The notes below the pieces were generated by a model. The model saw nothing but the letters and a program-made list of their open reading frames with translations, made no database searches and had not been told where the DNA came from. From Nemertoderma westbladi (lineage: Eukaryota; Animalia; Xenacoelomorpha), in NCBI GenBank assembly GCA_032718475.1, contig JAUCBJ010001849.1:1-64000 (forward strand): DNA of 64,000 nt. The letters are read 5' to 3'. The position numbers and the translations under genes are program-made. Each line of letters begins with the position of its first letter. The first letter of the stretch is position 1. Shown piece by piece: positions 25,459 to 61,127 of this stretch.

Positions 25459-27455
25459 TCACCGGGGGTCCACCGGGGGAAAACCGACACCGCGGGGGGC
25501 GTCGGTGCCCACCGTGGGAATACCGACACCGCGGCGGGCGTCGGTGCCCACCGGGGGAATACCGAGACCGCGGGGGGCGTCGGTGCCCACCGTGGGAATA
25601 CCGACACCGCGGGGGGCGTCGGTGCCCACCGTGGGAATACCGACACCGCGGGGGGCGTCGGTGCCCACCGTGGGAATACCGACACCGCGGCGGGCGTCGG
25701 TGCCCACCGTGGGAATACCGACACCGCTGGGGGCGTCGGTGCCCACCGTGGGAATACCGACACCGCGGGGGGCGTCGGTGCCCACCGGGGGAATACCGAC
25801 ACCGCGGGGAGCGTCGGTGCCCACCGGGGGAATACCGACACCGCGGGGAGCGTCGGTGCCCACCGGGGGAATACCGACACCGCGGGGAGCGTCGGTGCCC
25901 ACCGTGGGAATACCGAGACCGCGGGGAGCGTCGGTGCCCACCGGGGGAATACCGACACCGCGGGGGGCGTCGGTGCCCACCGTGGGAATACCGACACCGC
26001 GGGGGGCGTCGGTGCCCACCGGGGGAATACCGACACCGCGGGGAGCGTCGGTGCCCACCGGGGGAATACCGACACCGCGGGGAGCGTCGGTGCCCACCGG
26101 GGGAATACCGACACCGCGGGGAGCGTCGGTGCCCACCGTGGGAATACCGACACCGCGGGGAGCGTCGGTGCCCACCGGGGGAATACCGACACCGCGGGGG
26201 GCGTCGGTGCCCACCGTGGGAATACCGACACCGCGGGGACTCATCGCGGACTCGTTAACTGGACTCCGTGGCTCCCAGCGGGACCGTTTCATTGGCGGAT
26301 CCCCGGCCACGGTTTGGCCAATAGGCAGACGTTGCGGGAGACCAACGGGCCGAGGGACGTTGATGGACATTAGCGGAACGGAAATCTGGGGAGCGCCTAA
26401 GCGAGAGGGGGCCGCGCTCCTCGCCATACTCTGTGGAACAAAGTTCCTCGGGCCGTTCCAAACGGGACCTTGCGATGGGAACCGGTTATCCGGAGTTTGG
26501 GTCAGCAAAGGAACGCGTTCTTCCTGTTTGCTGGGAAACCCGCCGACTGGACTCACACCCGACTCAATAACGCCGCCGTGCGAGGTTTTCGGTTTTTCTT
26601 GTAAAGTGTCAGAGTTATCATCGGAAGCGGTGGCATTGCCTTCTATATGGCTTATATATATGGTTATATTGTCGTCATCCTCAACACCATCGCCACCTAT
26701 ATCTGCTGTGTTATAATAAGGAGCCCCTACTACGGCCTCATTGCTCATGGGAGCGCGGGGCCGTGGGATAAAGTTCATCCCACGAACCATACTGTCAGCA
26801 GTTACTCCAAACCTAGGCATAAACTCCGCTCTCTGGACGCCAACTAAAGGACGCCCAAATCGGTCTACAGGGAAGCGAGCGCCCATAGGATGGTTCTCCG
26901 GTTGCAAGGCCATGGGAAACGCCGGAATCCCAGGGAACACTTGGGATGCGGTTGTTTTTAGGGTGGGAATCGCAGAAACCTTCATGGCGGGCGGCGTGGG
27001 CAGGGTTTCGGACACGTTGGCAGCCCCGGATGCAGGAGGGAGCATGGGTGGGAGCGATTCGGGGTCGATGGTACCGCCCTGGAGGAATTTATCGAAATCG
27101 TCCGGGAGAAACCGCCAGGGTATAGTGGCGACCCCGACCCCGACATCCCAGTAGCTCTTCCAGTCGCTAAACGTCTGAAAACCCCTCCCGGGTGCGAACC
27201 TCGGGTTCGAGTTGATCGCATTCCCCCCCAGAATCACCGGTCTACGGGACTCTATGGCCGACACCGCAGCGCGTCTGTCGACCATTACTATAAGGGCGCA
27301 GCCCTTGGATTGAATGACGTCCACGGACGATACCGGTCCGAACTCCTGGAACACCCCACGTAACTCCGCTTCCGTTGTGCTCTTGGGAAGATGTCCCAAC
27401 CATATTGTAGTGCTGCACACCTGTAGACACTCCGGTGACACTTTGGGAGGTAAAC
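25459..27455 (-). CDS. SCAF8: SCAF4/SCAF8-like protein, exon 2 (RRM + Pro-rich + 13-aa repeat)
   Basis: Acceptor TGTATAG|GT gives KKGLPPK...VCSTTIWLGHL...GCALIVM...FAPGRG...WDVGVGVATIPW, the SCAF4/8 RRM. In-frame 39-bp repeat at about 25480-26240. Stop at 25459. Confidence 0.85.
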
Positions 27456-27668
27456 CTATACAGAGGGACAGAAAATAAAATAATTTAAATGGCAAAAAGT
27501 ATGTTGGTGGGTTAACTATGCCAGCAATGATATATGTTGCTAAATCTCATAAGTAAAAGTAGACGAGTGCTGTTTTGGTTTTCTATAAAGTACTTTTATC
27601 AACGTGATTGATTATGCAATTTTATTGATAAAAAAATGTCAGACTTTCCGAGGAGGCATTGTTTAAAT

Positions 27669-29490: not shown

Positions 29491-29757
29491 TTATTTAATA
29501 AATTGCAATTATACTGCTTGGTTGAAATATCGGCAACTACAACATCCTTTTCTCGGACATCAGTAACAGATCTCATTACCCAACCCCAACAGATATTATC
29601 AACAATTACGACACTATATCCTGGGGATTGGTCTTTATATGATACAAAACAAAGACATACGAATAGAGCCTCTCCATATTAAGTACCGTTGATTACAGAT
29701 GATTAGGGAACTTTTAATATGATATTTAATAAATAATTTCGCTGTCACTGTACGAAC

Positions 29758-31252
29758 CTTTCTTCTCCCTTTCTCTCATCCGCACCCTCAGCTCCCCCTG
29801 TCTCTGTTCCTCTTCGTGTCTCTCCCGCTCCCGTTCATCCCGGTCCCGCAAACGTTGCTCCCGATCTTCGTTCATCCGGTACCCCGGAATCCGACCTGAC
29901 TTCGGCCCGAAACGGTCGGCCACCCCGCCTTCAGGAGCCAAATAGGAATCACGACTTCTCTGGTTGCTGGATTCGTCGCTGCTGGGCCGCGGCGGTAAGG
30001 GGGGCCCGGAGTCCCCAGTCTGTGAGGCGGGGGGCCCGCCAGGGGGGAGGGGAATGCTATCCGGATGGAAGGGGGGCCGTAGATGTTCGTTTAGGGTGAT
30101 CACCTGCGGTTGCCGGGGCCCAACGGGAGGTAGACGGCGTTGGTCGATATCCTGCAAGGCTGGGCCGAATCCCGGAAACTCGGCCACGCCCCCCAACCCC
30201 GGGATCGTCTGTCCGGGCGGCGTCCGGACGGCCGTGCCCATCGCGGGGGCTCCACGGGGTGACGTCATCTGGGGGCTAGTGTCAGACTCATCGCCATAAT
30301 CGAAGTCGAGAATCGCTTTGTTGAAGGGGACATCAGAGGGATTGGGGGGTTGCGGGGGAAGGGGGGCAGTGTGGCGAGGGGGTTGGGGCCCGGGGATACG
30401 GACCGCGGGATTGCTTCCCAGCATGGGGGCCGGGGGCCCCATGGAAAGCCCGGGCAACGAGAGCTGGGGGTTGGGCAGCCGCGCGCCGGCTAAGGCGGAA
30501 AGAGTTGAGGTTAGAGAGGCCAATGCGGCCAGGTCAATGTCGAGAGGTTGGAGTGCCTGGGGGGAGGTGAGGCGCTGCAGCAGCTGCTGCTGAACCATGT
30601 TCATCGGCTGGAATGGATTCATTGCGGAACTTTGCGCCATAATGTTTGAGAGAATCTTCATTGTCTCTTCCTGAGTCGGTGGATGCGCCTGTTGTAAAGT
30701 CTGGAGGATCTTTAGGGGGTCGGTTTCGCTCTGGACTACAGGAACTGTCGGTGCTATCGGCATGTACTGCGGTGAGGGGTTGACTTTCGCTATCTTGCGT
30801 TGCTGCGTTTGCGGTGTAACGAAATCCCCTGAAGCATCGGGATCAGCAGCGATATCAAGTAGTGGTTGAATGACCACCGACGGGAAGACTCCATTCTTTT
30901 GCCAGAGGTTTAGAACTCTCACGATTCTTGGCTTCTCGTCGCTTGTACACTTAAACAAGTTGTGGAATGTCACCTGAATGTTCTTAAGGAATCGCGGCCC
31001 GAAAACATCTTTATCTGCGCCGAACTGGTGACGCGATCGCCGAACTATGGAGTCAATCACATAGAGACCAGGAACTTTGTACTCCGGTTTACATTTCTGT
31101 ATAAATTTCTCTACGCTTTGAACGATATGTTCGTAGAATTTTATGCCCTCTATAGCGGATCGAGTAACCTGGGTCATCTTAGCATGCGATATTGGGGGGT
31201 GAACCACATATAGTGATGACAGCTCATCATTAAACTTTTTTACAACCTCCAT
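29758..31252 (-). CDS. SCAF8: SCAF4/SCAF8-like protein, exon 1 (CID domain + Pro/Gln-rich region)
   Basis: MEVVKKFNDELSSL...VEKFIQKCKPEYKVPGLYVIDSIVR.SRHQFG..KDVFGPRF...RIVRVLNLWQKNGVF and the conserved DFDYGD motif. ATG at 31252; donor AAAG|GTTCGT in phase 1. Confidence 0.92.
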
Positions 31253-31325
31253 AATTAAAATAAAGATAATTTCAGTGACCGAAAGTGAGAGTTTGTTGTT
31301 AGAGACTAGAGGAGATTGCAATTAC

Positions 31326-31585
31326 CTGATTCTATATCATGCACTAGGCCTAACGGATTCTGGTAGCCTGGAACTAGACCACCTGACCACTACAAAAACT
31401 GATGCGACAGAGCGAGGTGCCGTTAGCCAAACATTTCTCAGAGGCTGGTCCGATAACACTCAACGCATTGTTTGGTTGGACATTGACATTACCGGTATTG
31501 CATTATGCATTACAGTGTACATTACTGCATTATTACATACGGATTAGTATGGATTGAGAAATTGGATATATTTGACGTCAATGGA
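31326..31585 (-). repeat. Inverted partial copy of the dispersed repeat, immediately 5' of the SCAF start codon
   Basis: Reverse complement of 14226-14368 joined to 15570-15651, and of about 45612-45843. Confidence 0.88.
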
Positions 31586-31659
31586 GGTTTGGTTTGAGAA
31601 ATTAATACAGTAATATCACGTAGGCCTACCTAATCATATCTTTGCGTTAATTATTACTA

Positions 31660-31992
31660 GATCCACTGGCCCCCAGCCACCTTCAACAAACCATCATTGC
31701 CGAGGGGCACTGAGCTAAGGGGGCGGAGCGCATTAAAAACTCTAAGTATCGCGTAGACCTAATGGACCAGGGCCATTTATTTCACCCCGTGGCCTTTGAG
31801 ACCTTTGGCCGCCCTGGTCCAGAGACATCCACCTTCCTCCGGGAGATCGGGGCTCGTCTCCACAGTGCCACCCACGAACCGCGGTCACACCAGTTTCTGC
31901 TCCAACGCCTGGAGATGGCAATTTTGGTTGGTAATTCAGCCTCAGTCATGGGGACAGCAACCACGCCGACGATCGGTCTATTCGGGGACTGA
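31660..31992 (+). mobile_element. 3' fragment of an RLE-type (CRE-like) non-LTR retrotransposon
   Basis: K..KY...FHPVAFETFGRPG...FLREIGARL...FLLQRLEMAILVGNSASVMGT is the typical C-terminus after a restriction-like endonuclease. Confidence 0.7.
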
Positions 31993-32468
31993 AGAGCCGA
32001 AACCAATCGAAACTGTCGAAATGGTTGCCATTGCAGTCACCAACGGGATGACGGCCGAAGATATTCAATATTCAATACTCTATCTTATGCAATCTCAAAT
32101 ATTCAATGTTCGATCCCTAGATGGGGCAGTACTGTTTGGGCACAGTGCTTTAAATGCTGCAGCCTAGCCCAACCCCGGCTTTCATCCTTCAGTGGTCGAT
32201 TGGGAACCAAGGCAACTTGGGAAACAGAGTGGAAGGGTTTACTGTGGAAGATCACCCATGGTGGTGAACAGGCATTCCTTGGCTTAACGAGCCTAAAAGA
32301 TTCTCCCATTCAAATATTCAATTCGGTACTGTACCTTCAATTAAATATTCAATCTTAGTATTATTTCTGTGCTTCGTTATTTAATAATGTGATCATTATA
32401 TTAACATTTATATAGTTTTGAATTAATTGTTTCGAAATCAACAGTTATTCAATAAACTTATACAGCAG

Positions 32469-32887
32469 TATGGTGGCCCATGGCTGCCACTATAAAACTC
32501 TTGATAAAATATTTTAAAACAAAAAATAAAAAAAAAATAAAATAAAAAAAAAAAAAAAATAAAAAAAAAAATAAATAAATAAAAATAAAATAAAAAATAA
32601 ATAAAAATAAAAAAAAAATAAAAAAATAAAAATACCCCACGTGGCCCAGGGCTGCCATCACCCCATAATCAGATAACAGTTGGCCCATGGCTGCCATTAA
32701 AAAAAATAGTAAAAAAAAATAAAATACCTCCTCGTGGCCCAGGGCTGCCACTGCCCCCAGAATCAGTAATAGTATTGGCCCATGGCTGCCATTAAAAAAA
32801 ATAATAAAAAAAAAAATAAAATAACCCTCATGGCCCAGGGCTGCCACTGCCCCCAGAATCAGTAATAGTATTGGACCATGGCTGCCA
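32469..32887 (+). repeat. Left terminal inverted repeat with 7 copies of TGGCCCA(T/G)GGCTGCCA
   Basis: Motif copies near 32474, 32643, 32681, 32735, 32776, 32831 and 32872, plus an A-rich tract of about 110 bp. Confidence 0.92.
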
Positions 32888-33254
32888 GACTGCTGTACTA
32901 AGAATACTGTATACTGTACTGCTGTAGTACTGTCAGATTGTAGGCCTACTGATACTGCAGTACTGCTACTGTGCTAGGAGCACTGATACAAAAAGCAGAA
33001 ATACTTACCGATACGGGATACGATACGGTACGGTACCTGTCTGCCTGTACCGTTTTCGTATTGCCGAATTTTGTCGATTCTCATTTAGAGAGATCTCATT
33101 CTGGCAGTCTGGTACAGTATTAATGCTGTAATGGTATCGGTACCAGTTAACCAGTATCGCAATCAGCAGGCTTATATCTGTTTAGGCATATCTATCAGTC
33201 TATAGGCCTAGGCTTTTACCAAGATATACGGTACCGGTAGTTTAAATTGTGATT

Positions 33255-34556
33255 ATGGAAAGGAAAATCCGCAAGGAAGATGGTGATCTGCTGGCTAATA
33301 TTGAACATAAACTGGCGGCTAAGCGTATAAAACGACAATCGGATCGGCAGGGGACGAAATTATGCAAGGGTTCCCGTTCCGGTACTGGAAGTGCATATGT
33401 GAATGTTCAACGACTTTCAGAATTTGTAAATCGACAAGGTAAATATGCTACACTTGGTAGCCGTCATTTTGTACCATATAATTATCATGACTTTACAATA
33501 GAAGAACTAAAGAAATCATGTGAAGAGTATTTTGGGGAACCTGATGGAACTTGTGATGTCCTTGCCACCGACAGGGGACCCAGCTGCTTGGAGGAAAGTC
33601 AAATTCAAGGTAAGAAAGTGTACTATGTTCGATTCTTATCTGAGCCTGTGACACCAATTTCAACCAAAGTTGACTATACCCGTACCAGTCCTTCTGGAAG
33701 CAATAATTCGGAAATGTCACCCGCTTCTATCAGTATCCAAAGTGTGAAAAAACCAGTGTATCCTAAAAGTATCCCATTGTCGAAATTACTTAGGGCCGGC
33801 ATGTTAATGCCTAGTACATCAGCTAATAAACTAGAGGAGTGTGATATAATAACCGAAGAATTTAATGTTACCAGCGGTACGTGGTGTTTTAATAAATCAA
33901 AAGAGTACAAAGTAAGCATGGAATCCTTTGCTGAAGGTGGATTTAGGCGAGCTTATGCTGCGTATAATAGCGATATGTCTGCGAAATTTGTTATTAAGAA
34001 GTATACTACGGAATCTTCTGACTTGTTTAAGGAAGAATTCGGATTGGATAAACAACAACATCCACGAAAACAAGTACAAATGCATGAAGTTGCATCTGCC
34101 CTATGTTCATCTTGGGCCAAGAATCTCTCTGATACCTATTCTGAATGCGGGCCATTGTTGAAATATAACAAAATATGGCTTGGTCATATTGGGGAAGAAT
34201 GCTTTACTATCGAAGATTTTGTTGGAGGTGATTTTATAAAATACGTCAACAACGATGGAAGTTTAGTTTCCATACCACCTGTTGAATCGGAAGACCTCCT
34301 TGACCGACAAATTAAAGCTGAGTCGTTTACCCACTACTCATATATCCATTCTAAGAAGAAGTTAATGGTCCTTGATATTCAAGGCGCCAATTATGACCTA
34401 TATGATCCTGAGATATCAACAATGGTACTGGCGGAAGAGGATAAAGAGTTTTATTTTTGTGCTGGAAATTGCAGTGTTGTAGGAATCGCGACTTTTCTTA
34501 AGCAGCACAAATGCAACAAATACTGTCAGTATTTGGATTTGGTTACTGAGGAGTAA
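33255..34556 (+). CDS. Alpha-kinase (eEF2K/TRPM7/ALPK-type atypical protein kinase), intronless transposon cargo, 433 aa
   Basis: FAEGGFRRAY, FVIKKY, IEDFVGGDFIKYVNNDG, AESFTHYSY, LMVLDIQG, LYDPEI, AGN and the Zn-binding HKCNKYC are all intact. First ATG at 33255. Confidence 0.93.
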   Translation: MERKIRKEDGDLLANIEHKLAAKRIKRQSDRQGTKLCKGSRSGTGSAYVNVQRLSEFVNRQGKYATLGSRHFVPYNYHDFTIEELKKSCEEYFGEPDGTCDVLATDRGPSCLEESQIQGKKVYYVRFLSEPVTPISTKVDYTRTSPSGSNNSEMSPASISIQSVKKPVYPKSIPLSKLLRAGMLMPSTSANKLEECDIITEEFNVTSGTWCFNKSKEYKVSMESFAEGGFRRAYAAYNSDMSAKFVIKKYTTESSDLFKEEFGLDKQQHPRKQVQMHEVASALCSSWAKNLSDTYSECGPLLKYNKIWLGHIGEECFTIEDFVGGDFIKYVNNDGSLVSIPPVESEDLLDRQIKAESFTHYSYIHSKKKLMVLDIQGANYDLYDPEISTMVLAEEDKEFYFCAGNCSVVGIATFLKQHKCNKYCQYLDLVTEE

Positions 34557-34946
34557 GTGACACTAACTGTTTTGTGGTACGAAGAGTTACTCAAGTTTTC
34601 TGTTTATTGTGTTTGTTAGCTTTATAGTTTAGTTTTTAGATTTATAGTTTAGTTTTTTCAGCTTTATAGTTTAGTTTTTTTAGATTTATGTACGAGTGAC
34701 ATATATAAACAACTTAAACATTGGCTATGTTATAACTCTAATTATATTTAGATTAACCAAACTATAGCAGTTTTCGATTAGAATGAATGATTTGAAGGGA
34801 CTAGCCAGGGCGCATCTCTTCTGCTTTGCATCCATGGGGGTGGGGGGGGGGGGGGTCACTAATTAAAAAAAAATCGATTTTTCAATTACAATCCCCTCTA
34901 GTGCAGATTTTTATGTAACCATAACTGTTTATTTATATACTATTTA

Positions 34947-35194
34947 CTAAACATCACTATTTATCACATAAGTTTTCAATTCTATAAATGTTTGCTGAGA
35001 TGTTGCGATTGTGACGCGATTGAGGGTTTGAAGATAATCGTTACAATATTCTTCAAGTGCAGAGTTTAGCAATAGTGGGGGATGCTTTACCTTCAGTGTC
35101 TCTGCTGCTTCTTCTAATCTTTCTACATCGAGGTCTAGTCCCTGTTGTTCACTCCCGTAAGACTCAGGATGGTTGAAAATGTAGTCTGGGATAC
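34947..35194 (-). CDS. Transposase exon 2
   Basis: Acceptor TTTTCCTTTCAG|GT in phase 1 gives ...LPTG-IPDYIFNHPESYG..., with the stop at 34947. Confidence 0.8.
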
Positions 35195-35390
35195 CTGAAA
35201 GGAAAATGAGCAAAACATATCTAAAATTATATAGTACCATGTATTAGTAGACTATTGGAAACTAACTGTAACTAGTACAATTACCCTCTGATTATGCAAC
35301 TGCCACCCTCACCAAACACTATTGCGACCCAACAGATTAATCTAAATTCCAAACAGGTGTCGCAATTGTCCTAACTTCCTTACCACTAAC

Positions 35391-36354
35391 CTGTAGGCAA
35401 ATCAATTTTCTGTGCGCGTATCCTATGACTATTCCATTCTTCGATGAATTTATCAAGAATTTCTTGAAGCACAGGTAAATACACCATTGCCATTAACTGT
35501 CGATCAACTTGACTCCCTGGATCATAATTGTGACAATGAAGCAATTCCCGCAGTTGGTCTTTCAGCACACCCTCAACCCGGTCTGTCAACTCCCTCCACC
35601 AACGCTCTATCTTATTCGTAGTCGATGGACCATAAATTATGCTCTCCGATGCATCTTCAAAAACATCTAGGGTTTCAATTAAGTATGCATGTAAAGTCGC
35701 GGCCTTACCCGTTTCAGTTCCACAATCAAAGCGGCAGTAAATTGGGATCTGATTAGTTTCCTTGAGCATTTCATAATATAAGTTGCCAATAACGATGGGA
35801 TTTGAGTTAGAATAAACTGCCTTGCACATTAGGACTTTCCTGGAGTATGTATCCAAGCATCCATAAATTCCTATAGGAAAAGTTGAGTTTTGAAATCCAC
35901 AGGGTTTGTCATGGCCATCGAAACTTAGCATAAACATTGGACCATCGGATGTGAAATTTCCTTTCATTCTCTTCTTTTTAAATCTTGGCGTACGATGTGC
36001 CAATCCTTCAGGGTCAACCGCTTTCATAACTGCATGCGTTACCTTACGTGGAATTTTTATGTCATGTTGTACTCTAAGTCTTTGATTGACTGCGCGATAC
36101 CCCATGTCTCGACTGTTTCCGTTAAGTTCGTTTTTCACTGTTTGTATTATGTTATCCAAATTTTCTGCGTAATTGATATATTTAATTTCGAAGAATCGTA
36201 ATCGACGATCGAGCGTCCTTAAGCTCCAGTCATAATAATTAAATTCGTCTTTCACAAGATTTAAAATCTCTTTTCTGTGGAAGTTTTTCCTAACTAAATC
36301 CTTAAGTTTAGTTTTTAATACAACATCACTTTGCCAAATACACGTAGTCGCCAT
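35391..36354 (-). CDS. IS3/IS481-like (integrase-core) DDE transposase, exon 1; spliced product 403 aa
   Basis: HTH-like GYRAVNQRLR...VDPEG. Candidate catalytic residues in SFDGHDK, RFDCGTET and NKIERWW; also GCLDTYSR and EEWNSHRIR. Donor ACAG|GTTAGT; 196-bp intron at 35195-35390. Confidence 0.9.
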
Positions 36355-36475
36355 CTCCTCATTTGAGATGTAGTGAGCTGTCCACTGTCAGACTGCCTAA
36401 CAGGCAGAGCAACAAAGTTGAAAGGTCAGTACTGCAGTACGGCATCTGGAACTGCGGTAGGCCTACTGCGTGATG

Positions 36476-36961
36476 TGGCAGCTCTGGTCCAACAGTATTA
36501 CTGATTCTGGGGGCAGTGGCAGCCCTGGGCCACGAGGGATATTTTATTTTTTTTTTATTTTTTTTTTTTAATGGCAGCCATGGGCCAATACTATTACTGA
36601 TTCTGGGGGCAGTGGCAGCCCTGGGCCACGAGGAGGTATTTTATTTTTTTTACTATTTGTTTTTTTAATGGCAGCCATGGGCCAACTGTTATCTGATTAT
36701 GGGGTGATGGCAGCCCTGGGCCACGTGGGGGGTATTTTTTTTTATTAATTTATTTTTATTTTTTTTTTATTATATTTTTTTTTTATTTTTTTTTTTATTA
36801 ATTTTTTTTATTTTTTTTTTTATTTTTTTTTTTATTTTTTTTTTTTTTATTTTTTTTATTTTTTTTTTATTTTTTTTTATTTATTTTTATTTTATTTTTT
36901 ATTTATTTCTTTTTTAAATATTTTATCAAGAGTTTTATAGTGGCAGCCATGGGCCACCATA
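36476..36961 (-). repeat. Right terminal inverted repeat with 7 motif copies and a longer T-rich tract
   Basis: TGGCAGCC(A/C)TGGGCCA-type copies near 36476, 36517, 36572, 36613, 36669, 36708 and 36941. Confidence 0.92.
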
Positions 36962-37446
36962 CAGCAGTGTCATATATCGCGTATCCCTTGGCTGCTTGGT
37001 TTAATCACTATTCTTTATTCAAGTATAACTGAATCCTGGCCCGGCGCCTTCACCCTCCACTGATAATTTAAAATCGTAACTTATTCAATCTTTGACTAAA
37101 TTATACCAAACTTGGTAAACATGTAATCTTGTCTATCGGCTAAAATAAACACAACTTGCTAAAGTTTCCCCTATAATGTTTTTTCCTATAGAACAGGATG
37201 CAGTTTTATTTTAGTAGTAAACAAGCTGTTATTTGCGTCGATTTTCACCTGGTGAGGGAAGAATATTGATTGCCCCCCCCCCCCCCCCCCTCCCCCTGCA
37301 GTTAAGTAAGTGAAAATATTTCGGCACCATTTAATTTTATTATCACGGTCACACACCAGATACAATGTGATACAAATATTGGAGGGAAATTCAAACTGAC
37401 TGGCCTACATACTTGCTACTTCAGTACTTGTTGCTGTACTACTGTT

Positions 37447-40400
37447 CTAATCCGCCATGGAGGGGAGACCAGCGCCGTCCTCTAGCCCCAGGCCACTGCG
37501 CCACCGCATGCGGGATCCGCGCAGACAGTGGGATGTGCCACGGACGATGGCGAATAATATTCGCGTCCGGACCCATCCCATGACTGTCGCGTAGGGTTTC
37601 CCCCAGGATGCATGGAGTCTGGTGGCTATGACTCTGAGCAGTCTATTGGCCTGCGGTGCCAACACTCCGTCGCACGAAGCCACGAAGGGAGAGAAATCGC
37701 CGCGACGAGCTGCTACAGCAGCCGCGTATAGCCGCTTCTTCTCGTCCTCCGCCGCCTCGAGAACGGTCATAGGAGCGCGGTTAACGTACGACTCGGCGTC
37801 AAGGTTGGTTGACCTGATATCGATCAACGCCTGAGTCTGCACGTTAAACGCGCCCCTAATCCCTACATCGCACCGCAGCCCTGTCCCGTCACCTTCCTCC
37901 AACTGCTCCCTTACTACTGGCTCCAGCATTACATTGCGCGGCCCAAACGCCAACGCCGCGAGGTCGCCCACAGTATCTCTCAGCTCATTGTGGCGCTGGA
38001 TGACGAGGCCGCCCTTCTTACAGTTCAACCCATGGTTCAGGTCGAAGGCAGCCCCGCATCCGTCGCACCGGCTGTGTACTCCAAGGAGGGGACTTCCGTA
38101 TCGCACGGCGATCGCGTCACGAAACTCACGTGGGGATAGATCGTACTGGAGGTCCGCCCGGGGAATCGACGAGATCCAGCTACCGGTTTTGTACTCCGCC
38201 GCTCGGCGGATAGTGCGGCAGCGGCGTTCGGTCATCGCCCCCAGTGCCTCCTCGAACTCTGAGATCTCGGTCAGTTTCCGGTCGTCTCGGTCGACCTTCC
38301 TCGCCTTCGCCAAGCAGTCCCGGTGGGCTGGGAGGTCGAATTCCTCGGTGCCGGCCATCGCGCCGCTCAGGAACCGGGTCCCGTGCAAGGATACGAGGTA
38401 CGACGGTTTTGCCTCGGCTACCGGGTTTCGCAGTCCTAGACCTCCTCGTTGTGGGGACAAACTAAACAGTTTTCGTTCTGCCGGAGTTATGGTTCCTCCG
38501 ATCACTGCAGGAAGGAATCTTTGGGCGATGGCTGTCTCTAGAACGGCGTACTCCTCTTCGCAGTCGACGGTAACCCTCTGGAGATACGCCCACTCACGCT
38601 GCAACGAGCAGACCATGGCGGAGAAGGCCGCCTGTGGTTGGGATTCAGCCATCGTCGCCAGTGCGTCCGTCGCCTCTACCCACGCAGCCACCTTCGCCCG
38701 CACATACTGGCGTCGTTCTCCCGAACTCCCGAGAAACCCCCCGAGAAACCGGTGTCCCGTTACAATCTTTATCTGGTGGCCACTGAAGACTCTGCGAGCC
38801 TCGTCCTCGTACTCGGGGTCGACTACGAGGTAGCATTTGGACGTCTCGGGGAAGTAACCAAAAGCTGGGCCGAGTTTGAGCAGCTCCTCAAACCACCGCA
38901 GTAAGTCTGGGAGTTCACCCGCCCCGCCAGAATCGTCGGCGTACCAACTCTCCCGGACTGTAGGGGACCGTAAACTCCGGATCAACGGGAGGGCTCCGAT
39001 GGCGTACAGCAGCATTGCAAGGGGGTCGCCCTGGGTAACGCCCTCCGCGCTGAATATAATTGCGTCAGTCCCCTTCATGACAAGGATACTGTGGCCCCGA
39101 TAACTGTTAAACAGGAATGTAGAGCATCGTGGCCACAGGCAGCGCGCGTTCCACAACGCAGCTACCCGGTTGAGCGAGTTGAACGCGTTGGCCGCGTCCA
39201 CCAGTAGCACCCCCCAACCCGAGTCACTGTTATCCTCGAACAGCGATGACATCGAGTGTATCGCAGCCTCGACTCCTGCGGAGGTCCCCGCCGACAGCTG
39301 TTCGGCGCCACACGTGATGGTGACGTCATCCCCTGTGATCGCGGCCATTGCGCGGGCCATTATACGCCGGAGACACTCCCCGATTCCGATGGGCCGCACA
39401 CCCGGACACTTATCCAGCGCGATCAGTCGGCCAGACATAAGTGCCCGGACAGACTCCCACGGTACAACTACATTCGCTAGAGTCCGGGTGATTGCAGCAA
39501 CTGTGTCTCGGAGGCGCTCACTATGGGCGCCATAGCGGAGCAGATAATCCCGCCAGCGTGTGGAGTCGCAACCCGCGGGACCGCCGCCACCGTGCAGGCG
39601 CCGGGCCACCTCCTCGATGTGCGCCGCCGTCACGTCGACGTCGACCTTGAGAGGCGGCTCGCCGCACTGTATTAATGATTCTCTATTGGGAGGCGCTGCA
39701 GCCGGGTGTTTATTCCGAAGAACATCGAGTACTTTGACTCTTTGCTGACCAACTTCGATATCGGACTCTGGGTCCAACACGCCTCCGGACTCCCGACCGG
39801 TCACCCAGCGGACTGCGTTTCTTACCTTCCCCTCCAACATTAGTCTCGTAAACACACGGACTGTGTGTTCTTTATCCGAATTGGGAGGTTGGGTTCCTGC
39901 ACGCCTTCCTGTAGTGCGCCCAGGGGAGCCTCGCTCAGCCTCTTGTAAGAGGGCTTCGATCTCGCCGGAGCGCCACAACGCCACCCTGCGGCTGATTAGG
40001 CGGCGGATATCGGCCGCCTTAACGATCTTTGGATCTCGATGTGTGATCAACGCGTCGACCAGCATTAAACGTTCGGAACGAGCTGATGATTCACCACGAC
40101 CAAGTCCGGCTACTAAAGCCTTAGCCTCGTTGTCGAGCAAGGATACCACGTCCCTACCAACAGAGCCACCCGGGAGTCTGTAGCGAGAGCCCTGGAGCTG
40201 GGTGACTCTACGCCACTGGTGTAATATAAGGTCCGGTGGGTCTCCCTTCTCCCGCAGCGGTGCGCCAAAGGCTCTCTCCATTAGACCGTCGGTGTCCACG
40301 CTGTGTAGCGGACCTGATGGGTGGCCCGCTTGCCAGTACTCGTCAAGAATGTCGCTAACATTGGCCCTATTTCTGTTTGGCAGAAGCGTTGAACCAACAC

Positions 40401-43400
40401 CTGACACTTTTGGGCGACTTTGTGTTGTTTTTGGCCTAGTGGGTTGCACCCCAGACGCGGTGGCGATGATGGGTGGCGTCCCAGAGACGGTGGCGCTGAT
40501 TGGTGGCGTCCCGGAGACGGTGACAATGATGGGTGGCGTCCCAGAGACGGTGGCGCTGATGGGTGGCGTCACAGAGACGGTGGCGCTGATGTGTGGCGAC
40601 CCCAAGACGGTGGCGGCGGTGGGTGGCGCCCCCAGGACGGTGGCGGTGGTGTGTGGCGTCACAGAGACGGTGGCGCTGGTGGGTGGCGGCCCCAAGACGG
40701 TGGTGATGGTGGGTGGCGTCACGGAGACGGCGGCGCTGGTGGGTGGCGTCCCGGAGACGGTGGCAACGGTGGGTGGCGTCCCGGAGACGGTGGCGATGGT
40801 GGGTGGCGTCCCGGAGATGTAACATCCCTGTAACTGATTTAGAATATCCCTGTCTGATGGCTCTACTGTCTCGCCAGATGATTGGCTTCCCAAATGGGTT
40901 GGGGGACCAGTTGTCATTCCAGGAGGGTGATCTGACCCTGGGCAACGTTGGGAGACTGGTCCGTGAATGCGTAGAGTACCATTTGCTTTGATGGCCACTA
41001 ACCGCGCGCACGATGGACAATGGGTACTGAGGGCGCTGGTGCGTCCCGTTGGACCGACACCGATACTGGTGGGAGCTGACAAACCGATGTCCAGACCAGA
41101 AGTGGCGGAACAACCGACACCCAGAGGGTTGGGGATGGAATGATCGACACCCAGGCTGGTAGAGGCGGAATGACTGACACCCGCACTGGTAGGAAGGGAG
41201 TGACCAACACCCAGACTGTGAGGGGCTGACTGACCGACACCTGGACTGGTTGGGGCGGAATGACCGACACCTGGACTGATATGGACGGAAAGACCGACAC
41301 CTGGACTGGTAGGGACGGAATGACCGACGTCCGGACTGGTAGAGGCAGAAAGACCGACAACCGGACTGATAGGGATGACTGGGACCGACTGAGCGAGACC
41401 TGGACTGGTATGGACGGCATAACCGACACCCGGACTGGTAGGGACGGAATAACCAACACCCGGACTGGTAGGGGCAGAAAGACCGACAACCGGACTGATA
41501 GGGACGACTGGGACCGACTGACCGACACCTGGACTGGTAGGGACGGAATAACCGACACCCGGACTGGTAGGGGCAGACTGACCGACATACTGACTTATAC
41601 CCGGACTGGTTGGGACTAAGTAACCGACACCCGGACTGGTAGGGGCAGAAAGACCAACAACCTGACTGATAGGGACCGACTGACCGACACCTGGGCTGGT
41701 TGGGACGGAATAACCGACACCCGGACTGGTAGGGGCAGAATAACCGACACCCGGACTGGTTTGGGCAGAATGACCGACACCCGGACTGGTAGGGACGGGA
41801 TAATCGACACCCGGACTGGTTGGGACAGAATAACCGACACCCAGACTGGTAGGGACAGGATAATCGACACCTGGACTGGTTGGGTCAGAATGACCGACAC
41901 CCAGACTGGTAGGGACGGGATAATCGACACCCGGACTGGTAGCGACAGGATAATCAACACCCGGACTGGTCGGGACAGAATGACCGACACCCGGACTGAT
42001 AGGGACCGACTGACCAACACCTGGACTGGTTGGGACGGAATAACCGACACCCGGACTGGTAGGGGCAGAATGACCGACACCTGTACTGGTAGGGGCAGAA
42101 TGACCGACACCCGGACTGGTAGGGGCAGAATGACCGACAACCGGACTGATAGGGACGACTGGGACCGACTGACCGACACCTGGACTGGTAGGGACGGAAT
42201 AACTGACACCCGGACTGGTAGGGGCAGACTGACCGACATACTGACTTATACCCGGACTGGTTGGGACTGAGTAACCGACACCCGGACTGGTAGGGGCAGA
42301 AAGACCAACAACCTGACTGATAGGGACCGACTGACCGACACCTGGGCTGGTTGGGACGGAATAACCGACACCCGGACTGGTAGGGGCAGAATAACCGACA
42401 CCCGGACTGGTTTGGGCAGAATGACCGACACCCGGACTGGTAGGGACGGGATAATCGACACCCGGACTGGTTGGGACAGAATAACCGACACCCAGACTGG
42501 TAGCGACAGGATAATCGACTCCCGGACTGGTCAGGACGGAATGACCGACACCCGGACTGGTAGGGGCAGAAAGACCAACAACCTGACTGATAGGGACCGA
42601 CTGACCGACACCTGGACTGGTTGGAACGGAATAACCGACACCCGGACTGGTAGGGGCAGAATGACCGACACCTGTACTGGTAGGGGCAGAATGACCGACA
42701 CCCGGACTGGTAGGGGCAGAATGACCGACACCCGGACTGGCAGGGGCAGAATGACCGACACCCGGACTGGTAGGGGCAGAATGACCAACTCCTGGACTGG
42801 TAGGGGCAGAATGACCGACACCCGGACTGGTAGGGGCAGAATGACCGACACCCGGTCTGGTAGGGGCAGGATAATCGACACCTGGACTGGTTGGGTCAGA
42901 ATGACCGACACCCAGACTGGTAGGGGCGGGATAATCAACATCCGTACTGGTTGGGACGGAATAACCGACACCTGGAACTGGGGAACCCGACTGGTAAGAC
43001 ACCGACACGGGGGGACCCGATGAGGGGGCCGGGGATCCAGCGCCCATTTGCGGGGTTAATGTGCAGTCCGGATCGAATTCTCCTGGGGTTAGAGTCTGGT
43101 CCATCAGGTCGTCGAGCTCCTCCAGGGTTGAGTTTATAACTTCCTGGGTTACAAAGCCGTTATGCGAAAGGCACGCTGTGGCTTGACGCGGTTTCCATCT
43201 GGGCGAGTTGGATACCAGATAGTCGAGAACCCCGTGGCCCGCGGAACCGCTGTACCTCGGGGGCATCGCGAGACTATCTGGATCGGGTGAGCTCGGCCCG
43301 TTCGCGCACGAGTTCTGCTCCAGAGGTTTGCAGGAGGAACAGGGAACTCCCGCACAAGCACACTTGCACCCTCGGCAAGAGCCGCTGCGACACTTGCAGC

Positions 43401-43419
43401 AGCGCTGGGATGGCGCCAT
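37447..43419 (-). mobile_element. CRE-clade-like non-LTR retrotransposon with an intact single ORF (1990 aa): Cys-rich N-terminus, repeat linker, Zn finger, RT, CCHC knuckle, RLE
   Basis: GVRPIGIGE, LLVDAANAFNSLNR, GVTQGDPL, WYADD, CDGC..H..C, RHNELRD, RCDVGIRG...IDIR, E..KKRLY. No stops. Confidence 0.92.
40455..42980 (-). repeat. In-frame minisatellite expansions within the retrotransposon ORF (30-bp units: PTSPGVGHSA-type and TVSGTPPTxA-type)
   Basis: Direct reading, including a larger internal duplication of about 630 bp. Confidence 0.9.
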
Positions 43420-43498
43420 GTAGGGGAATCCGCTCGAAAATCCGGCGATAGATCGTTCACGTTGCGATGTAGCAGCCTATCAGTATGTTGCACCGTGG

Positions 43499-46110: not shown

Positions 46111-46448
46111 TCTCTCTCTACTTACAGACTTAGGGGGTTCTGCCTTGAAGGTGACGAGTACATTTTTCTGTAGGCTAAATAAATACAGAAATAGGCCACC
46201 CCTGACCTTGAAATTATAAATTAAGCTTTCTGGAGAAACCCGTGAGGTGCACAGCAGGGCACAGCACACATAATCCGGTCAAAATGTCCTTTCCTTGAGG
46301 CCTACCAAACCTACTACTAAATACTGACCTACTGACAGTGGACAGTAGACCTTGTAGAAACTTAGATTCATTATTTCACTAGCACTATTTTACTTAGGCC
46401 TAGCATATTGCTGCAACTTCGCGTGTGCTGCTGCTGTTATAGTTTACA

Positions 46449-47213
46449 ATGCAACGCGCGTTATTAGAAGGCATTTCAACGGTTCTCCTTGACATAGAAG
46501 GGACTGTTTGTCCCATCGCCTTCGTTAAAGATACTTTATTTCCCTACGTTACCGCAAATGTAAGACCCTTCCTGGTTGACAACTGGAACTCGAATGAATT
46601 CAAGTCACTTCTCAATGACCTCGTTGACCAATCCAAACGAGATAACGTTGAATTCCCAGAAGAGGTGGACGTTATCCCCAATGATTCAGACAGCGATAAA
46701 GACATTGTAGTAGATGCCTTGGTAAATAACATTTTATGGCAGGTCGCCAAAGATAGAAAGACATCGGCACTTAAAACTCTTCAAGGCCGCATGTGGAAGT
46801 CAGCGTACGTGTCGGGTGACATCAAGGCTCCTGTTTACTTGGACGTTGTAAATGCATTGTACCGATGGAAGGATTCCCACGTTAGCGTTTCTATATACTC
46901 GTCTGGGAGTGTTGAAGCTCAACGTCTATTATTTAGTTACAGCGAATCGGGGGATTTAACACCGTTCCTTTCGGAATACTTTGATACCCGAATCGGGATG
47001 AAACGCGAATCGAATAGCTACTCGGCCATATCGGACTCTATGGTTGTCCAGCCGGCTCGGGTTTTATTTCTAACGGATGTTTATGAGGAAGCGAGAGCGG
47101 CCGAGTCTGCTGGAATGTCGGTGTGTTTGGTTGTAAGACCCGGGAATAACTCGTTACCTAGTGACTCCGAGAACCTTCCAGTCATTAAATCATTCGATGA
47201 ATTATTTGATTAA
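46449..47213 (+). CDS. ENOPH1: Enolase-phosphatase E1 (HAD family), single coding exon
   Basis: LLDIEGT, FVKDTLFPY, DRKTSALKTLQG, IYSSGSVEAQRLLF, YFDT.IG.KRE, LFLTDV, VRPGN. Confidence 0.96.
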   Translation: MQRALLEGISTVLLDIEGTVCPIAFVKDTLFPYVTANVRPFLVDNWNSNEFKSLLNDLVDQSKRDNVEFPEEVDVIPNDSDSDKDIVVDALVNNILWQVAKDRKTSALKTLQGRMWKSAYVSGDIKAPVYLDVVNALYRWKDSHVSVSIYSSGSVEAQRLLFSYSESGDLTPFLSEYFDTRIGMKRESNSYSAISDSMVVQPARVLFLTDVYEEARAAESAGMSVCLVVRPGNNSLPSDSENLPVIKSFDELFD

Positions 47214-48213
47214 TACAGATTATTGAATCTACCCACAACGCTACTGTCTTTGTGATATTCGGTTTGTTTAGCAACTTCTGATTTTGCAACAGCAAATATC
47301 AGATGATAATTTTGGTTATTAATAATTATTAATAACTGACATTTACTTAGACTCGCACCAAAATTAACTGAAACTAAACAATAAAAGTTGTAAACCTTCC
47401 AGATTCCAGTAGCGGTAACTATGGTGACTATGGTTAGAAATAATTCAATTGTGTTTGAAGTTTGTTGTTTTGGTTTTTCCGTTACTATTTATATATTCAA
47501 GGTGATTGGTGCTATTAGTTGGTACTTAGTATTATGTACTGGTAACTCTATTAAAGGAAGTTCAGTTTCGCGTTCCTTTGTGAAGATTAGCTGTATAAAT
47601 AATAGAGACAATAAATACATTTACATTGATAATTCATTCCAAAATATTAACATTTACTTAACCGCCGTTAAGTAATGTTAACAGCGAGTCTGTTCGGTAT
47701 CACATTGGGACTTTAGTTGACAGCTGTACATTTATTTGCGAAGTAAAGTAGACTTTACAGGTTTATACGAGTAACTTTACAATGAAACTGAACCTGATCC
47801 TTGGAATTTCTCTTCGGTTGTCTCCAAAACCTGTTTGTTTATTAATAAACCTTTAAATAACATCTACAACAGCTGTAAGTACCGGTAAAGCGAGATATAA
47901 CTGCTAAATGTGTAGATGAATTCTTTTAATATTACTTCTAAACTTTTATACTGGTTTGATACAAAAAATTAGAGAATTTTAGAAATTCCACTAAAAATAT
48001 TAAACACGTGCGGTTTTCAAGGGATTCGTTTCGTAATGTTAACATTTTGTAATGAATAAACCTTTACATTATGTAGTTGCAATAAGTACTTTACAGCTTT
48101 CTGATCCTCATTTATTTATTTTCTCAACAATTCGGTTCAGCACACAAGAAATATTTATTTAACGTTTTTTGACAGCAACTAATATTATTTACAAATATAA
48201 AACAGAACCAACG

Positions 48214-49275
48214 ATGTCCGAAACGACCAAAGATCATGTCCAATCAGTTGTTGGTCTTGTAAATCCAGAGGATCTCGGATATACGTTGACCCACGAACAC
48301 CTAAAGATCGATTACTCCAGTTGTGTGCAAGATTGCGGCGAACACGGAATATCTAATGAACTATTTAAAGGAGAGATTGCCTTAAACAACTTTAATTTAG
48401 TCAATCGATATCCGTATTGCCATGAGGATAACCTGAATGTAGCGAACGACGGTGAGTCTGTGCTGTCCGACGTTAAGTTGTTTAAGGAGCGCGGAGGCGG
48501 TTGTATTGTAGATAACACGACTATAGGTATAGGGCGAGACGCGACATTTCTGCGTGAACTTTCTACCCAAACTGGAGTTCATGTAATCGCCCCCACAGGT
48601 CTATATTTGAGTCACACAGTCCCAGCCTCCTACAGGGGTTACACTGTGGAGCAGCTGTACGATCTAATGGTTAAAGAGATTACCCAAGGTATCGATGGTA
48701 CTGACATTAAAGCTGGAGTTATAGGAGAGATAGGTTGCGAGTATCCGCTAGAGGCGTTAGAACGGAGGTGTTTGTTGGCGGCGTCGCAGACACAACAACA
48801 GCTCGGGGCTCCGCTTATAATACACCCGGGTCGCTATGACGACAGCCCGGTAGAGATAATGCGACTTGTGTTGGAGAGCGGAGGCCTTAAGGATAAAGTC
48901 GTTATGTCTCATATGGAGCGAACCTATGTGAACCCCGATTCGGTGTTCGATCTACTCGAGCTCGGGTGTATAGTCGAATACGATTTCTTCGGGATCGAAA
49001 CGAGTTTCTATCCGAAACGCAACGAGTTGGATATGATGAACGACGGCGAGAGAGTCAGGATTATAAAGAAGATTATCGATCAGGGATTCCTCCATAAGGT
49101 CGCCATCGCTCACGATATTCACACGAAACATCGACTCACTAAATACGGTGGCCATGGTTACTCCCACATTCTAGAACATATTGTACCGCTAATGTTGCGT
49201 CGGGGTATCAGCCAATCACAAGTCGACGTTGTGTTGAAGACGACGCCTCAGCGGTGGTTGACCTTTACCAAATAA
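48214..49275 (+). CDS. PTER: Phosphotriesterase-related protein, single coding exon
   Basis: TLTHEHL, IVDNTTIGIGRD, GVIGEIG, IIHPGR, MSH, AHDIHTKHRL.KYGGHGYSHIL. First ATG at 48214. Confidence 0.95.
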   Translation: MSETTKDHVQSVVGLVNPEDLGYTLTHEHLKIDYSSCVQDCGEHGISNELFKGEIALNNFNLVNRYPYCHEDNLNVANDGESVLSDVKLFKERGGGCIVDNTTIGIGRDATFLRELSTQTGVHVIAPTGLYLSHTVPASYRGYTVEQLYDLMVKEITQGIDGTDIKAGVIGEIGCEYPLEALERRCLLAASQTQQQLGAPLIIHPGRYDDSPVEIMRLVLESGGLKDKVVMSHMERTYVNPDSVFDLLELGCIVEYDFFGIETSFYPKRNELDMMNDGERVRIIKKIIDQGFLHKVAIAHDIHTKHRLTKYGGHGYSHILEHIVPLMLRRGISQSQVDVVLKTTPQRWLTFTK

Positions 49276-58944: not shown

Positions 58945-60771
58945 TTATATTTCCTTGATGCGATGCCTATTGTGCATGGGTTGGAGTTGGTAGGTCTGAT
59001 CGTTGGTCTGTCCGGTGAGAACCGACAACGAGGAGGCCCGCTTCATCGCCCCGGACGGCGGCGGGGGCGTCAACTCGCTACTCCCTCGCAACGCCTTCAC
59101 CAACTTCCGGCTGCTCGTCTGTATCGACTGGCGGAGTTTCGTGAAACTCCCGCTGTGCTGCATGCGGCCGTCCCCGGTGCCGTGCCACTCCGCCACCCGC
59201 TCCCCTGCGGCGTCGTACGCCACCCGCTCCCCAGCGGCGTCGTACGCCACCCCCGGCCCCTCCCGTTGCCGCCTGGCCCTCCCGGACAGCGGCAGCTCCC
59301 CGCCGCAGCTCAGCACCTCCTGTATCCGGGAGGCCCGAACCCCATCCAACGTGTTCTTCCGCGCCCGAGTCGCGCAGTCCTCGAGAATATCCGCCGCGTC
59401 GAACTTACCTTGTCGGCGGTACAAAGCGCCGAGATTCCTTAGCGTCATAGAGACCGTGGGGAGATCCACCCGGTTGGACTTGTACCAGGCGCCATTGGGC
59501 TCGGAATCCAGACTGGCCGGACGGACGACCACACCGGAATCCGAGTCCATCGCCCGCAGGAGGACCTGCTTGTACAGCTGCTCCGCCGCGTTCAACTTAC
59601 CCTGTTTCAGATACGCGGAAGCCAAATTATTCTTCGTTTTCGCCACATTAGGATCATTGGGTCCCAACTTACTCAGGTAAATATCCAAAGCCTTTCCGTA
59701 GTATATCTCCACCTCGTCGTACTTACCCTGGTTCTGACACAACAACGCCAGGTTATTCAGCTGTTTGGCAACGTCCGGATGATCGGCTCCTAACATTCGC
59801 TCCCGTATCTCCAATGCTCGCTTACACAAGGGCTCGGCGTCCCGGTACCGACCCCGCTTACCGTAGAGAACCGCTAGGTTGTTGAGGGTCGCCGCTACTG
59901 CAGGGTGATCCCTGCCTAACGTCGACTCCCTGATTGCCAAGGCGTCGTTCAGTAGCGCGGCAGCCTCTTTATACTTACACTGATCGCGATAAACCAAGGC
60001 CAATATGTTGAGCATGGTGGCCACATCTGGGTGGTCCCGTCCCGAGTTCCGTTCGAGGTCCTCCAGCGCTTGTTTACACAGCGGGACGGCGACCTCGTAA
60101 CGACCTTCAGACGCGTACTGTATGACGAGGTTGTGGAGGGTTCGCAGTCTAGCGGGGACCTCCACCCCGGTACCGGTACCCGCGGAGACCACCGACTGCT
60201 TATCCTCACCTCCGGTTTCCTCCTCCTCGCCGAATCCCAGATCCAATTCGTTTATTATCGCCTCCGGAGTGTCCTCCTCGTGGGTTACCTTGGCGACGTA
60301 CTCCGGGTCTTCCAGACGACGCATCTCGAGTTGATGTTTGAATTGTTTGTGTTCTTCCTCCAGTTGCACCACGATTAGTTCGCTGCTCTGGAGTTTCTGC
60401 TGGGTCGTGGTTAACTCTTCTCGTAGCCAAGTATTCTCCTGACAAAGCCGTTTAACCTGCGAACGGAGTTTCAATTTCTCTCCTTCTAAGTGCGTCGTAT
60501 AGTTGATCATCGTTATTAGAACTTGGGCGTCAGATATTCCGCATTCTAACAGGTCCAGCGTCTTTACAACATTTTCGTTTTTGTCCTGCTCCGCTGCGCT
60601 TTCGCTGCCGCTAGACGATTTATCTAATCGCGAATCGGTTTTTAGACAACCGAATTCGGATTTTAACTGCTGTAATCCTTCGACGACGGTCTTCGTATTG
60701 GATATTAAATCTTCGTGGTTTAATTTAGCCGATTTACTTGGGGATGTTAGAGTTTCTGGTAAACCCATCAT
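58945..60771 (-). CDS. KLC: Kinesin light chain, single coding exon
   Basis: [23 protein letters not shown] heptads, [34 protein letters not shown], TPRs ([32 protein letters not shown]) and MKRASSL. Confidence 0.97.
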
Positions 60772-61127
60772 TCGGCATTCGGTGATATTTTGTACAGTAT
60801 GATGATTTTCAAGTTTCCTGTACCGGAACCTGTTTTTATACTGTTAATACAGTAATATAAGTTTCAAGTTTCAATCAAATAATTAATACATGTAATAATG
60901 TATTAGGCCTACTGTATTACCGGTAGGGCGGTAGGCCTATTTCAGTATTTAAGTTAGATCAGTAGATTAGGAGGTCCTGCAGTCTTGTCATAAACTCATA
61001 GCAGCTTAGTAATACTGTAATACTGTAATACAGTAATAGCAGTACTACAGCGCAGTAGGCTAGGTGGAAGGAGGAAAACGCCACAAGGAATAAGGGTGAG
61101 TACAAAACGGAGACCGGAGATGGGAGA

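Follow-up and report, generated by a model that had tools for sequence, protein, structure and literature searches.

The DNA analysed here (the window) comprises 64,000 nucleotides of the xenacoelomorph Nemertoderma westbladi (assembly GCA_032718475.1, contig JAUCBJ010001849.1, positions 1 to 64,000, forward strand) and contains, at positions 32469-36961, a mobile element of 4,493 bp. We consider this element, with a probability of about 95%, to be a complete two-gene DNA transposon of the IS3EU type, in which genes for a DDE (Asp-Asp-Glu) transposase and for an alpha-kinase face each other. The kinase is a core gene of the element lineage and not an isolated capture; a protein kinase in this position is unusual. 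The pairing itself is already in print for fungi. New here are the animal two-gene lineage, the ubiquitin-like N-terminal domain of the kinase protein, and the family-wide loss of an acidic residue from helix C of the kinase domain.

An initial annotation, made from the letters alone, had proposed a bounded element with TAT...ATA termini, a CAGCAG target site duplication (TSD), and long terminal inverted repeats (TIRs), and these boundaries were confirmed. The termini are TATGG (32469) and CCATA (36961), the outermost 46 bases are identical between the two ends, and both copies of CAGCAG flank the element directly. Only one pair of boundaries combines a 20/20 end match with the full 6-bp duplication. 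Alternative boundaries, with duplications of 4, 8, 9, or 10 bp, were rejected, as a shift of one base outward or inward gives 4 or 8 bp and the longer duplications spoil the symmetry of the ends. The TIRs, about 420 bp on the left and 486 bp on the right, exceed the 30 bp asked for in the IS3EU definition, and both consist of an A-rich tract and three 96-bp subunits. Their inner parts align with 245 matches, 9 mismatches, and 6 gaps, and since just 9 of 254 aligned bases differ, the insertion is young. The motif GGCC-N6-TGCCA occurs six times in each TIR and 0 times in the rest of the window. No second copy of the element was found within the window; a TAYGGYGGCC sequence at 49144 was dismissed as a chance occurrence, being located inside a phosphotriesterase-like open reading frame (ORF) and not followed by the TIR motif.

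The IS3EU superfamily (IS3EU/GingerRoot) was described with TA..TA ends and mostly 6-bp TSDs, and in 2022 Repbase listed 45 of its families (Kojima and Bao, 2023, PMC10045372). Shared with it are the TA..TA ends, the 6-bp TSD, and a DDE transposase that lacks the HHCC motif and has its first Asp 100-300 residues from the N-terminus: residues 1-145 of the window transposase hold one Cys only, and the triad D146, D210, and E250 is invariant across 64 aligned transposase sequences (64 of 121 were used). The protein matches the Pfam family rva_4 (E 2e-16). In a comparison by eye with 14 IS3EU rows of the supplement to PMC10045372, the core motifs agreed, and among those rows only the fungal IS3EU-1_PGra shares the motifs DGHDK, GTET, and KIE with the window transposase, a hint that kinase-bearing elements may form one branch.

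A 196-nt intron probably interrupts the transposase gene, with the borders AG/GTTAGT ... TTTTCCTTTCAG/G, a good donor, and a pyrimidine tract. The splice is inferred because homologues have about 400-410 residues and, among 61 long ones, the alignment of 22 runs unbroken across the junction. Transposase matches in several relatives (L004, L009, L012, L018, L023, L040, L053, and others) break near residues 136, 200, 249, 285, and 341. The window intron, at residue 322, differs from these shared positions, and L019 and L041 are unbroken over the aligned part. The differing positions suggest that introns may have been gained or lost frequently within the transposase lineage.

The opposing gene is intronless, and its product covers the entire Pfam profile Alpha_kinase (PF02816; E 5e-31, 108.6 bits against a cut-off of 21.3), so that the two convergent genes of the initial annotation, a spliced DDE transposase and an intronless alpha-kinase, were both recovered. 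Relatives of the kinase are numerous. Database searches returned 108 at E ≤1e-10, the best of them spanning 85-99% of its length, and a profile search found 467 kinase clusters (50% identity) at E ≤1e-30. Relatives carrying a name are called 'TRPM6-like', 'myosin heavy chain kinase D-like', or hypothetical, and their hosts include cnidarians and a tunicate. No relatives of either gene were found in viral contigs.

The genomic context of the kinase was followed in metagenome contig stretches that were picked by their kinase, the best 80 of 238 being kept. A transposase of the same type was found at 49 of these 80 loci, and the two genes are convergent in 48 of the 49. When loci were grouped at 85% DNA identity, the transposase was present in 29 of 45 groups overall, in 28 of the 31 whose DNA extends 1 kb or more downstream of the kinase, and in all 23 where it extends 1.5 kb or more. 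In all 16 groups without it, the contig stops no more than 1.3 kb past the kinase. The earlier view of a mobile element with the kinase as one of its regular genes is thus borne out. At the exception to convergence, L003, the sequence of L041 recurs in rearranged form: the two (1-2701 and 1-2944, respectively) are 99.7-99.9% identical, and in L003 the 5' side of the transposase is fused to the kinase start and both ends are absent, an arrangement that represents a circle, a tandem junction, or an assembly error. A search for longer proteins gave 2 matches among 6846 candidates, half a kinase fused to a protein of a long interspersed nuclear element (LINE) and one ALPK2. Two gene models, P0108 from Exaiptasia (a partial kinase with a THAP/DDE_Tnp_4 protein) and P0369 (a partial kinase with a LINE endonuclease-reverse transcriptase), are likely nested insertions.

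The relatives also share the ends of the window element. The TAYGGYGGCC end was found at 25 of the 80 loci, and flanks differ within groups (L009/L049, L071/L074, L034/L037). The six bases outside 22 relatives' ends follow the palindromic pattern S-W-n-n-W-S, its four fixed positions agreeing in 20, 18, 17, and 21 of these ends, and CAGCAG conforms to it. In the relatives GGCC-N6-TGCCA points inward, with 38 plus-strand against 3 minus-strand occurrences upstream, 15 minus-strand against 3 plus-strand occurrences downstream, and 7 in 239 kb of interior. The assignment to an IS3EU-type mobile element, already made in the initial annotation, is therefore supported by the ends, the 6-bp TSD, the differing flanks, and the empty site described below.

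Kinase and transposase distance matrices are correlated (Spearman 0.59, p 0.0002; 20 elements, 5000 permutations), and supported groups are shared by the two trees; 10 of the 29 groups, having fewer than 180 residues of either gene, were omitted from this test. The ratio of nonsynonymous to synonymous substitution rates (dN/dS) in the kinase domain was 0.14-0.38 in 23 of 24 pairs (dS 0.2-1.0), these pairs coming from about six groups and not being independent, and in the N-terminal ubiquitin-like domain it was mostly 0.08-0.28. The pairs listed had a synonymous difference (pS) of 0.03-0.62 and at least 60 codons. As judged from these ratios, both domains are shown to be under purifying selection, and because selection between families keeps the kinase, it probably serves the spread of the element.

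That a host kinase was captured just once, or that a host gene came by chance to lie between transposon ends, might be suspected from the database names (TRPM6-like, MHCK-D-like) and from the single copy in the window. Such an origin is very improbable. It is refuted by the pairing across the 23 groups and by the same ends at differing sites, and the purifying selection between copies and the fungal pairing (PMC12730594) also speak against it.

The element, whole or partial, is present in four sequencing runs of one organism (X1-X4; at most 3 samples from three studies). One contig of X1 carries an empty site, in which the left flank runs into a single CAGCAG and then into 23 letters of the right flank and, after an 8-letter gap, 5 more. 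The copies in the other runs diverge by less than 1%. Both reading frames are open in the window copy. Residue 270 of the window kinase is Pro, in contrast to Ala in all four runs and to Thr or Ala in 208 of 232 relatives, and the window copy may be slightly impaired because Pro replaces the usual residue. Run X4 has zero coverage across the transposase, a hole that is no proof of absence. Summed contig depth is about 100 times greater on the terminal 46 bases than on the genes; this value is not a copy number, and it hints at numerous short derivatives of the element.

The initial annotation knew of no report of an alpha-kinase as a standard transposon gene, and the novelty that this implied is for the most part contradicted by the literature. 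In one passage, on fungi only, every TET+ IS3EU family of rust fungi was reported to hold a TET/JBP gene flanked by a transposase gene and an alpha-kinase gene that point in opposite directions (Kojima, 2025, PMC12730594, section 4.1). The same source gives the IS3EU ends as TAYGG..CCRTA. These fungal elements have in common with the window element the ends, the 6-bp TSD, TIRs of more than 30 bp, and the opposed transposase and alpha-kinase genes (PMC12730594). The window element, in contrast, is of an animal type, measures 4.5 kb against 5.6-13.4 kb, has no TET/JBP gene, and has long, repeat-rich TIRs; its kinase has an N-terminal ubiquitin-like domain, the fungal kinases being compared by their description in PMC12730594 only. 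GingerRoot elements, known from clubmoss, fish, coral, and sea anemone, share the TA..TA ends, the mostly 6-bp TSD, and an integrase-like transposase and differ in having TIRs of 100-150 bp and carried host gene fragments; the word kinase has 0 occurrences in the text (Cerbin et al., 2019, PMC6839031).

Kinase is likewise mentioned 0 times in PMC10045372. An ancestral IS3EU element was stated to encode two proteins (PMC10853768), and the structure and function of IS3EU were called largely unexplored (PMC11934779). No description of a kinase in animal IS3EU elements was found in the literature searched, including PMC11934779, PMC10853768, 10.1101/2021.09.26.461848, PMC9587614, and PMC5753468, and one may stand in Repbase Reports, in Kojima's review of eukaryotic transposons, or in Iyer et al. 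(2014). Repbase curators are probably already aware of the animal IS3EU kinase. In the same literature no function for the IS3EU alpha-kinase was found.

The structure model of the kinase protein has a mean predicted local distance difference test score (pLDDT) of 83, with a loose linker. In 51 of 62 kinase sequences (62 of 109 were used in the alignment), a basic cluster resembling a nuclear localization signal (NLS) occurs within the first 45 residues, compared with 110 of 1240 control windows. For residues 48-127, the top matches in a fold search are all beta-grasp domains (Ubl, SUMO, PB1, CIDE-N; Z 6-7, root mean square deviation about 3 Å, 70-82 residues aligned), and no named family stands out among them, the best Z being 7.0 with 50 rows within 1.6. 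Atlas matches to GRHL1_C and TDP-43_N, all below 0.8, are leads only. In the Foldseek search with the kinase model, the top 44 rows have the alpha-kinase fold (E 5.5e-16 to 1ia9). The kinase domain matches TRPM7, MHCK-A, eEF2K, and ALPK1, with TRPM7 as the closest solved relative (E 1e-31) and 22% identity to MHCK-A. In common with the cellular alpha-kinases TRPM7 (1ia9), MHCK-A (3lkm), eEF2K (7shq), ALPK1, and ALPK2 are the fold, the ATP-site and catalytic residues, and the Zn site, whose ligands H360, H418, C420, and C424 are all present; these residues are conserved in at least 96% of the 171-241 relatives covering each position. Unlike the cellular enzymes, the window kinase has no channel, WD40, Ig, or calmodulin-binding part and carries the ubiquitin-like domain instead.

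The kinase motifs had been described as intact. This applies to the catalytic and Zn-binding residues but not to helix C, where Gln273 (34071-34073) replaces the acid. The position aligns with MHCK-A D663, TRPM7 E1672, and the Glu of an ALPK2, yet an acidic residue stands there in just 1 of 232 relatives (the others including Q 123, V 31, S 23, A 20, T 14). Four residues further, where these three enzymes have Gln and the window kinase His277, 214 of the 232 have His or Asn. In the three cellular enzymes compared at these positions (TRPM7, MHCK-A, and an ALPK2), a helix-C Glu or Asp is followed by Gln four residues on, whereas the transposon kinases combine Q, V, S, A, or T with His or Asn. 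MHCK-A D663 and TRPM7 E1672 are equivalent, and the MHCK-A variants D663A and D663S still bind nucleotide and keep 25-50% of the ATPase activity with about 1% of the kinase activity (PMC4876393). The missing acid suggests slow, docking-dependent phosphorylation rather than broad signalling, and the family-wide change points to a chemistry unlike that of the cellular alpha-kinases.

Both the loss of the acid in the relatives and the behaviour of the MHCK-A variants would also suit a kinase-fold ATPase or nucleotide switch that is not a protein kinase, that oligomerizes through the ubiquitin-like domain, and that controls transposition or the capture of a target. Folds similar to the N-terminal domain include PB1, CIDE-N, and the TDP-43 N-terminus, domains that polymerize. 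Such a switch is nevertheless improbable, as D374 (the catalytic base), Q376, D384 (which binds Mg), and the G-N loop are all retained, His277 and the invariant Gln275 may compensate for the loss, the mutants were studied in a single, distant enzyme, and a beta-grasp fold reveals no function. IstB, TnsC, and MuB are ATPase helpers of some bacterial transposons. If the alpha-kinase of animal IS3EU elements had been repurposed as an ATP-driven transposition switch, assembled by the ubiquitin-like domain, with efficient phosphorylation lost along with the helix-C acid and ATP binding or hydrolysis gating the transposase, which we consider a long shot, it would be a eukaryotic counterpart of these helpers built on a kinase fold.

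We tentatively favour, at somewhat less than even odds, a helper role for the kinase in the transposition complex of its own element. The transposase would bind the repeated GGCC-N6-TGCCA motifs of the TIRs, cut with a 6-bp stagger at S-W-n-n-W-S sites, and, as expected from knowledge of the family, move the element by cut-and-paste or a related DDE route. The kinase protein would reach the nucleus via its basic N-terminal helix, and its ubiquitin-like domain would dock it onto the transposase or onto its own copies. ATP-dependent phosphorylation of a narrow target, the transposase or the kinase itself, might then switch the assembly or the timing of the complex; a narrow, tethered target is favoured because a docking domain and a weakened kinase suit it. 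The two-protein Harbinger elements offer an analogy for such a helper. A complex prediction for the kinase protein with transposase exon 1 (score 0.06, mark 0.34), made without alignments or folded controls, speaks neither for nor against it.

The same element might instead use its kinase against silencing, with phosphorylation of host histones or of small-RNA or chromatin proteins keeping it transcribed or accessible. This is the less likely role, even though the N-terminus is NLS-like, the cleaved alpha-kinase of TRPM7, the closest solved relative, phosphorylates histones (PMC4876393), and TET/JBP is also carried by fungal IS3EU elements (PMC12730594). A general anti-host gene would be expected to swap element types as TET/JBP does, and the whole-domain dN/dS ratios give no sign of the rapid change that a surface in conflict with the host should undergo. 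The helper role is preferred over a general anti-host role because the kinase keeps to one transposase type, being reported with IS3EU, whereas TET/JBP cargo is exchanged among superfamilies (PMC12730594, section 4.1).

A number of observations weigh against the favoured reading of a complete element with a helper kinase. IS3EU-type transposases can seemingly move without one, because GingerRoot, of the same lineage, was described with no mention of a kinase (PMC6839031), and the pairing counts given here cover loci that were chosen by their kinase. Three loci (L010, L044, L052) have more than 1.5 kb downstream and no transposase match. Both ends occur together in none of the relatives' contigs, and a second TSD pair was not seen there. 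The empty site stands in one contig and, because the flank is a multicopy repeat, may be another, paralogous target copy rather than the other allele. Broken copies exist in the runs, with kinase stops at codon 383 (X2, X3) and codon 178 (X4) and a 2-nt transposase deletion at 35898 (X2, X3). Matching trees follow from physical linkage alone, and the branches L057, L023, and L019 disagree; one of the 24 dN/dS pairs (71 codons) has a ratio of 0.73, and values up to 0.7-1.2 occur in close pairs. Finally, the helix-C change may leave scant protein-kinase activity.

The initial annotation had also suggested that such elements explain many orphan alpha-kinases of invertebrates, and the labels of the named relatives agree with this: among the genes that annotations of marine invertebrates label 'TRPM6-like' or 'myosin heavy chain kinase-like', many are transposon genes, the linkage having been checked on the 80 loci. 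Kinome counts are affected where transposon kinases are annotated as host genes. The compact, intact two-gene copy of the window makes the role of the kinase testable.

Table 1. Features of the IS3EU-type element and its insertion site (positions in the window).
Feature	Position	Strand	Remarks
Left TSD copy, CAGCAG	32463..32468	.	Single copy in empty-site contig; conforms to S-W-n-n-W-S, the pattern outside 22 relatives' ends
Left TIR	32469..32887	+	TATGGTGGCC end, A-rich tract, three 96-bp subunits
GGCC-N6-TGCCA motifs of left TIR	32475, 32643, 32682, 32736, 32777, 32832	+	Predicted transposase sites, likely
Kinase gene, intronless, 433 aa	33255..34556	+	Basic N-terminal helix, ubiquitin-like domain, linker, alpha-kinase domain
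N-terminal helix, residues 2-33	33258..33353	+	NLS-like basic cluster; model pLDDT 41-69, low
Ubiquitin-like beta-grasp domain, residues 48-127	33396..33635	+	Without Pfam family; model pLDDT 93
Alpha-kinase domain	33831..34532	+	R231 (P-loop Arg), K248, E320, K329, D374, Q376, D384, G404-N405 present
Spacer separating convergent stop codons	34557..34946	.	22-bp tandem repeat 34611-34689; high-copy repeat pieces 34785-34819, 34836-34915
Transposase exon 2	34947..35194	-	Includes stop codon
Inferred intron, 196 nt, GT-AG	35195..35390	-	Best among all GT-AG pairs tried; yields 403 aa
Transposase exon 1	35391..36354	-	DDE triad D146, D210, E250
Right TIR	36476..36961	-	Six GGCC-N6-TGCCA at 36955, 36722, 36683, 36627, 36586, 36531, minus strand
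Right TSD copy, CAGCAG	36962..36967	.

The 390-bp spacer between the two genes has no ORF of 60 aa, and a third gene would not fit into it; its stretch 34785-34915 holds pieces of a high-copy repeat. A search of Rfam gave zero matches over 31000-38000. High-copy repeat DNA makes up the left flank (32050-32468), and a unit of about 60 bp within it (32220-32280) is tandem in all four runs. To the right, 490 bp from the element's end, lies an open non-LTR retrotransposon ORF of 2,009 aa (37450-43476, minus strand) with a weak RVT_1 match (E 0.008) and long tandem repeats in its first half; a fragment similar to its C-terminus occurs at 31714-31992. A CID-domain ORF (29729-31321, minus strand) and an RRM ORF (25462-27546, minus strand) jointly resemble a SCAF4/SCAF8 gene, the start of which is about 1.2 kb from the left end of the element. 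Long unbroken host ORFs encode a HAD hydrolase (46443-47210), a member of the phosphotriesterase family (48163-49272), and a TPR protein similar to kinesin light chain (58948-60843). An ORF running to the end of the window (63144-63998, plus strand) has a weak match to the Ulp1 protease family (Peptidase_C48, E 3e-4) and may belong to another transposon.

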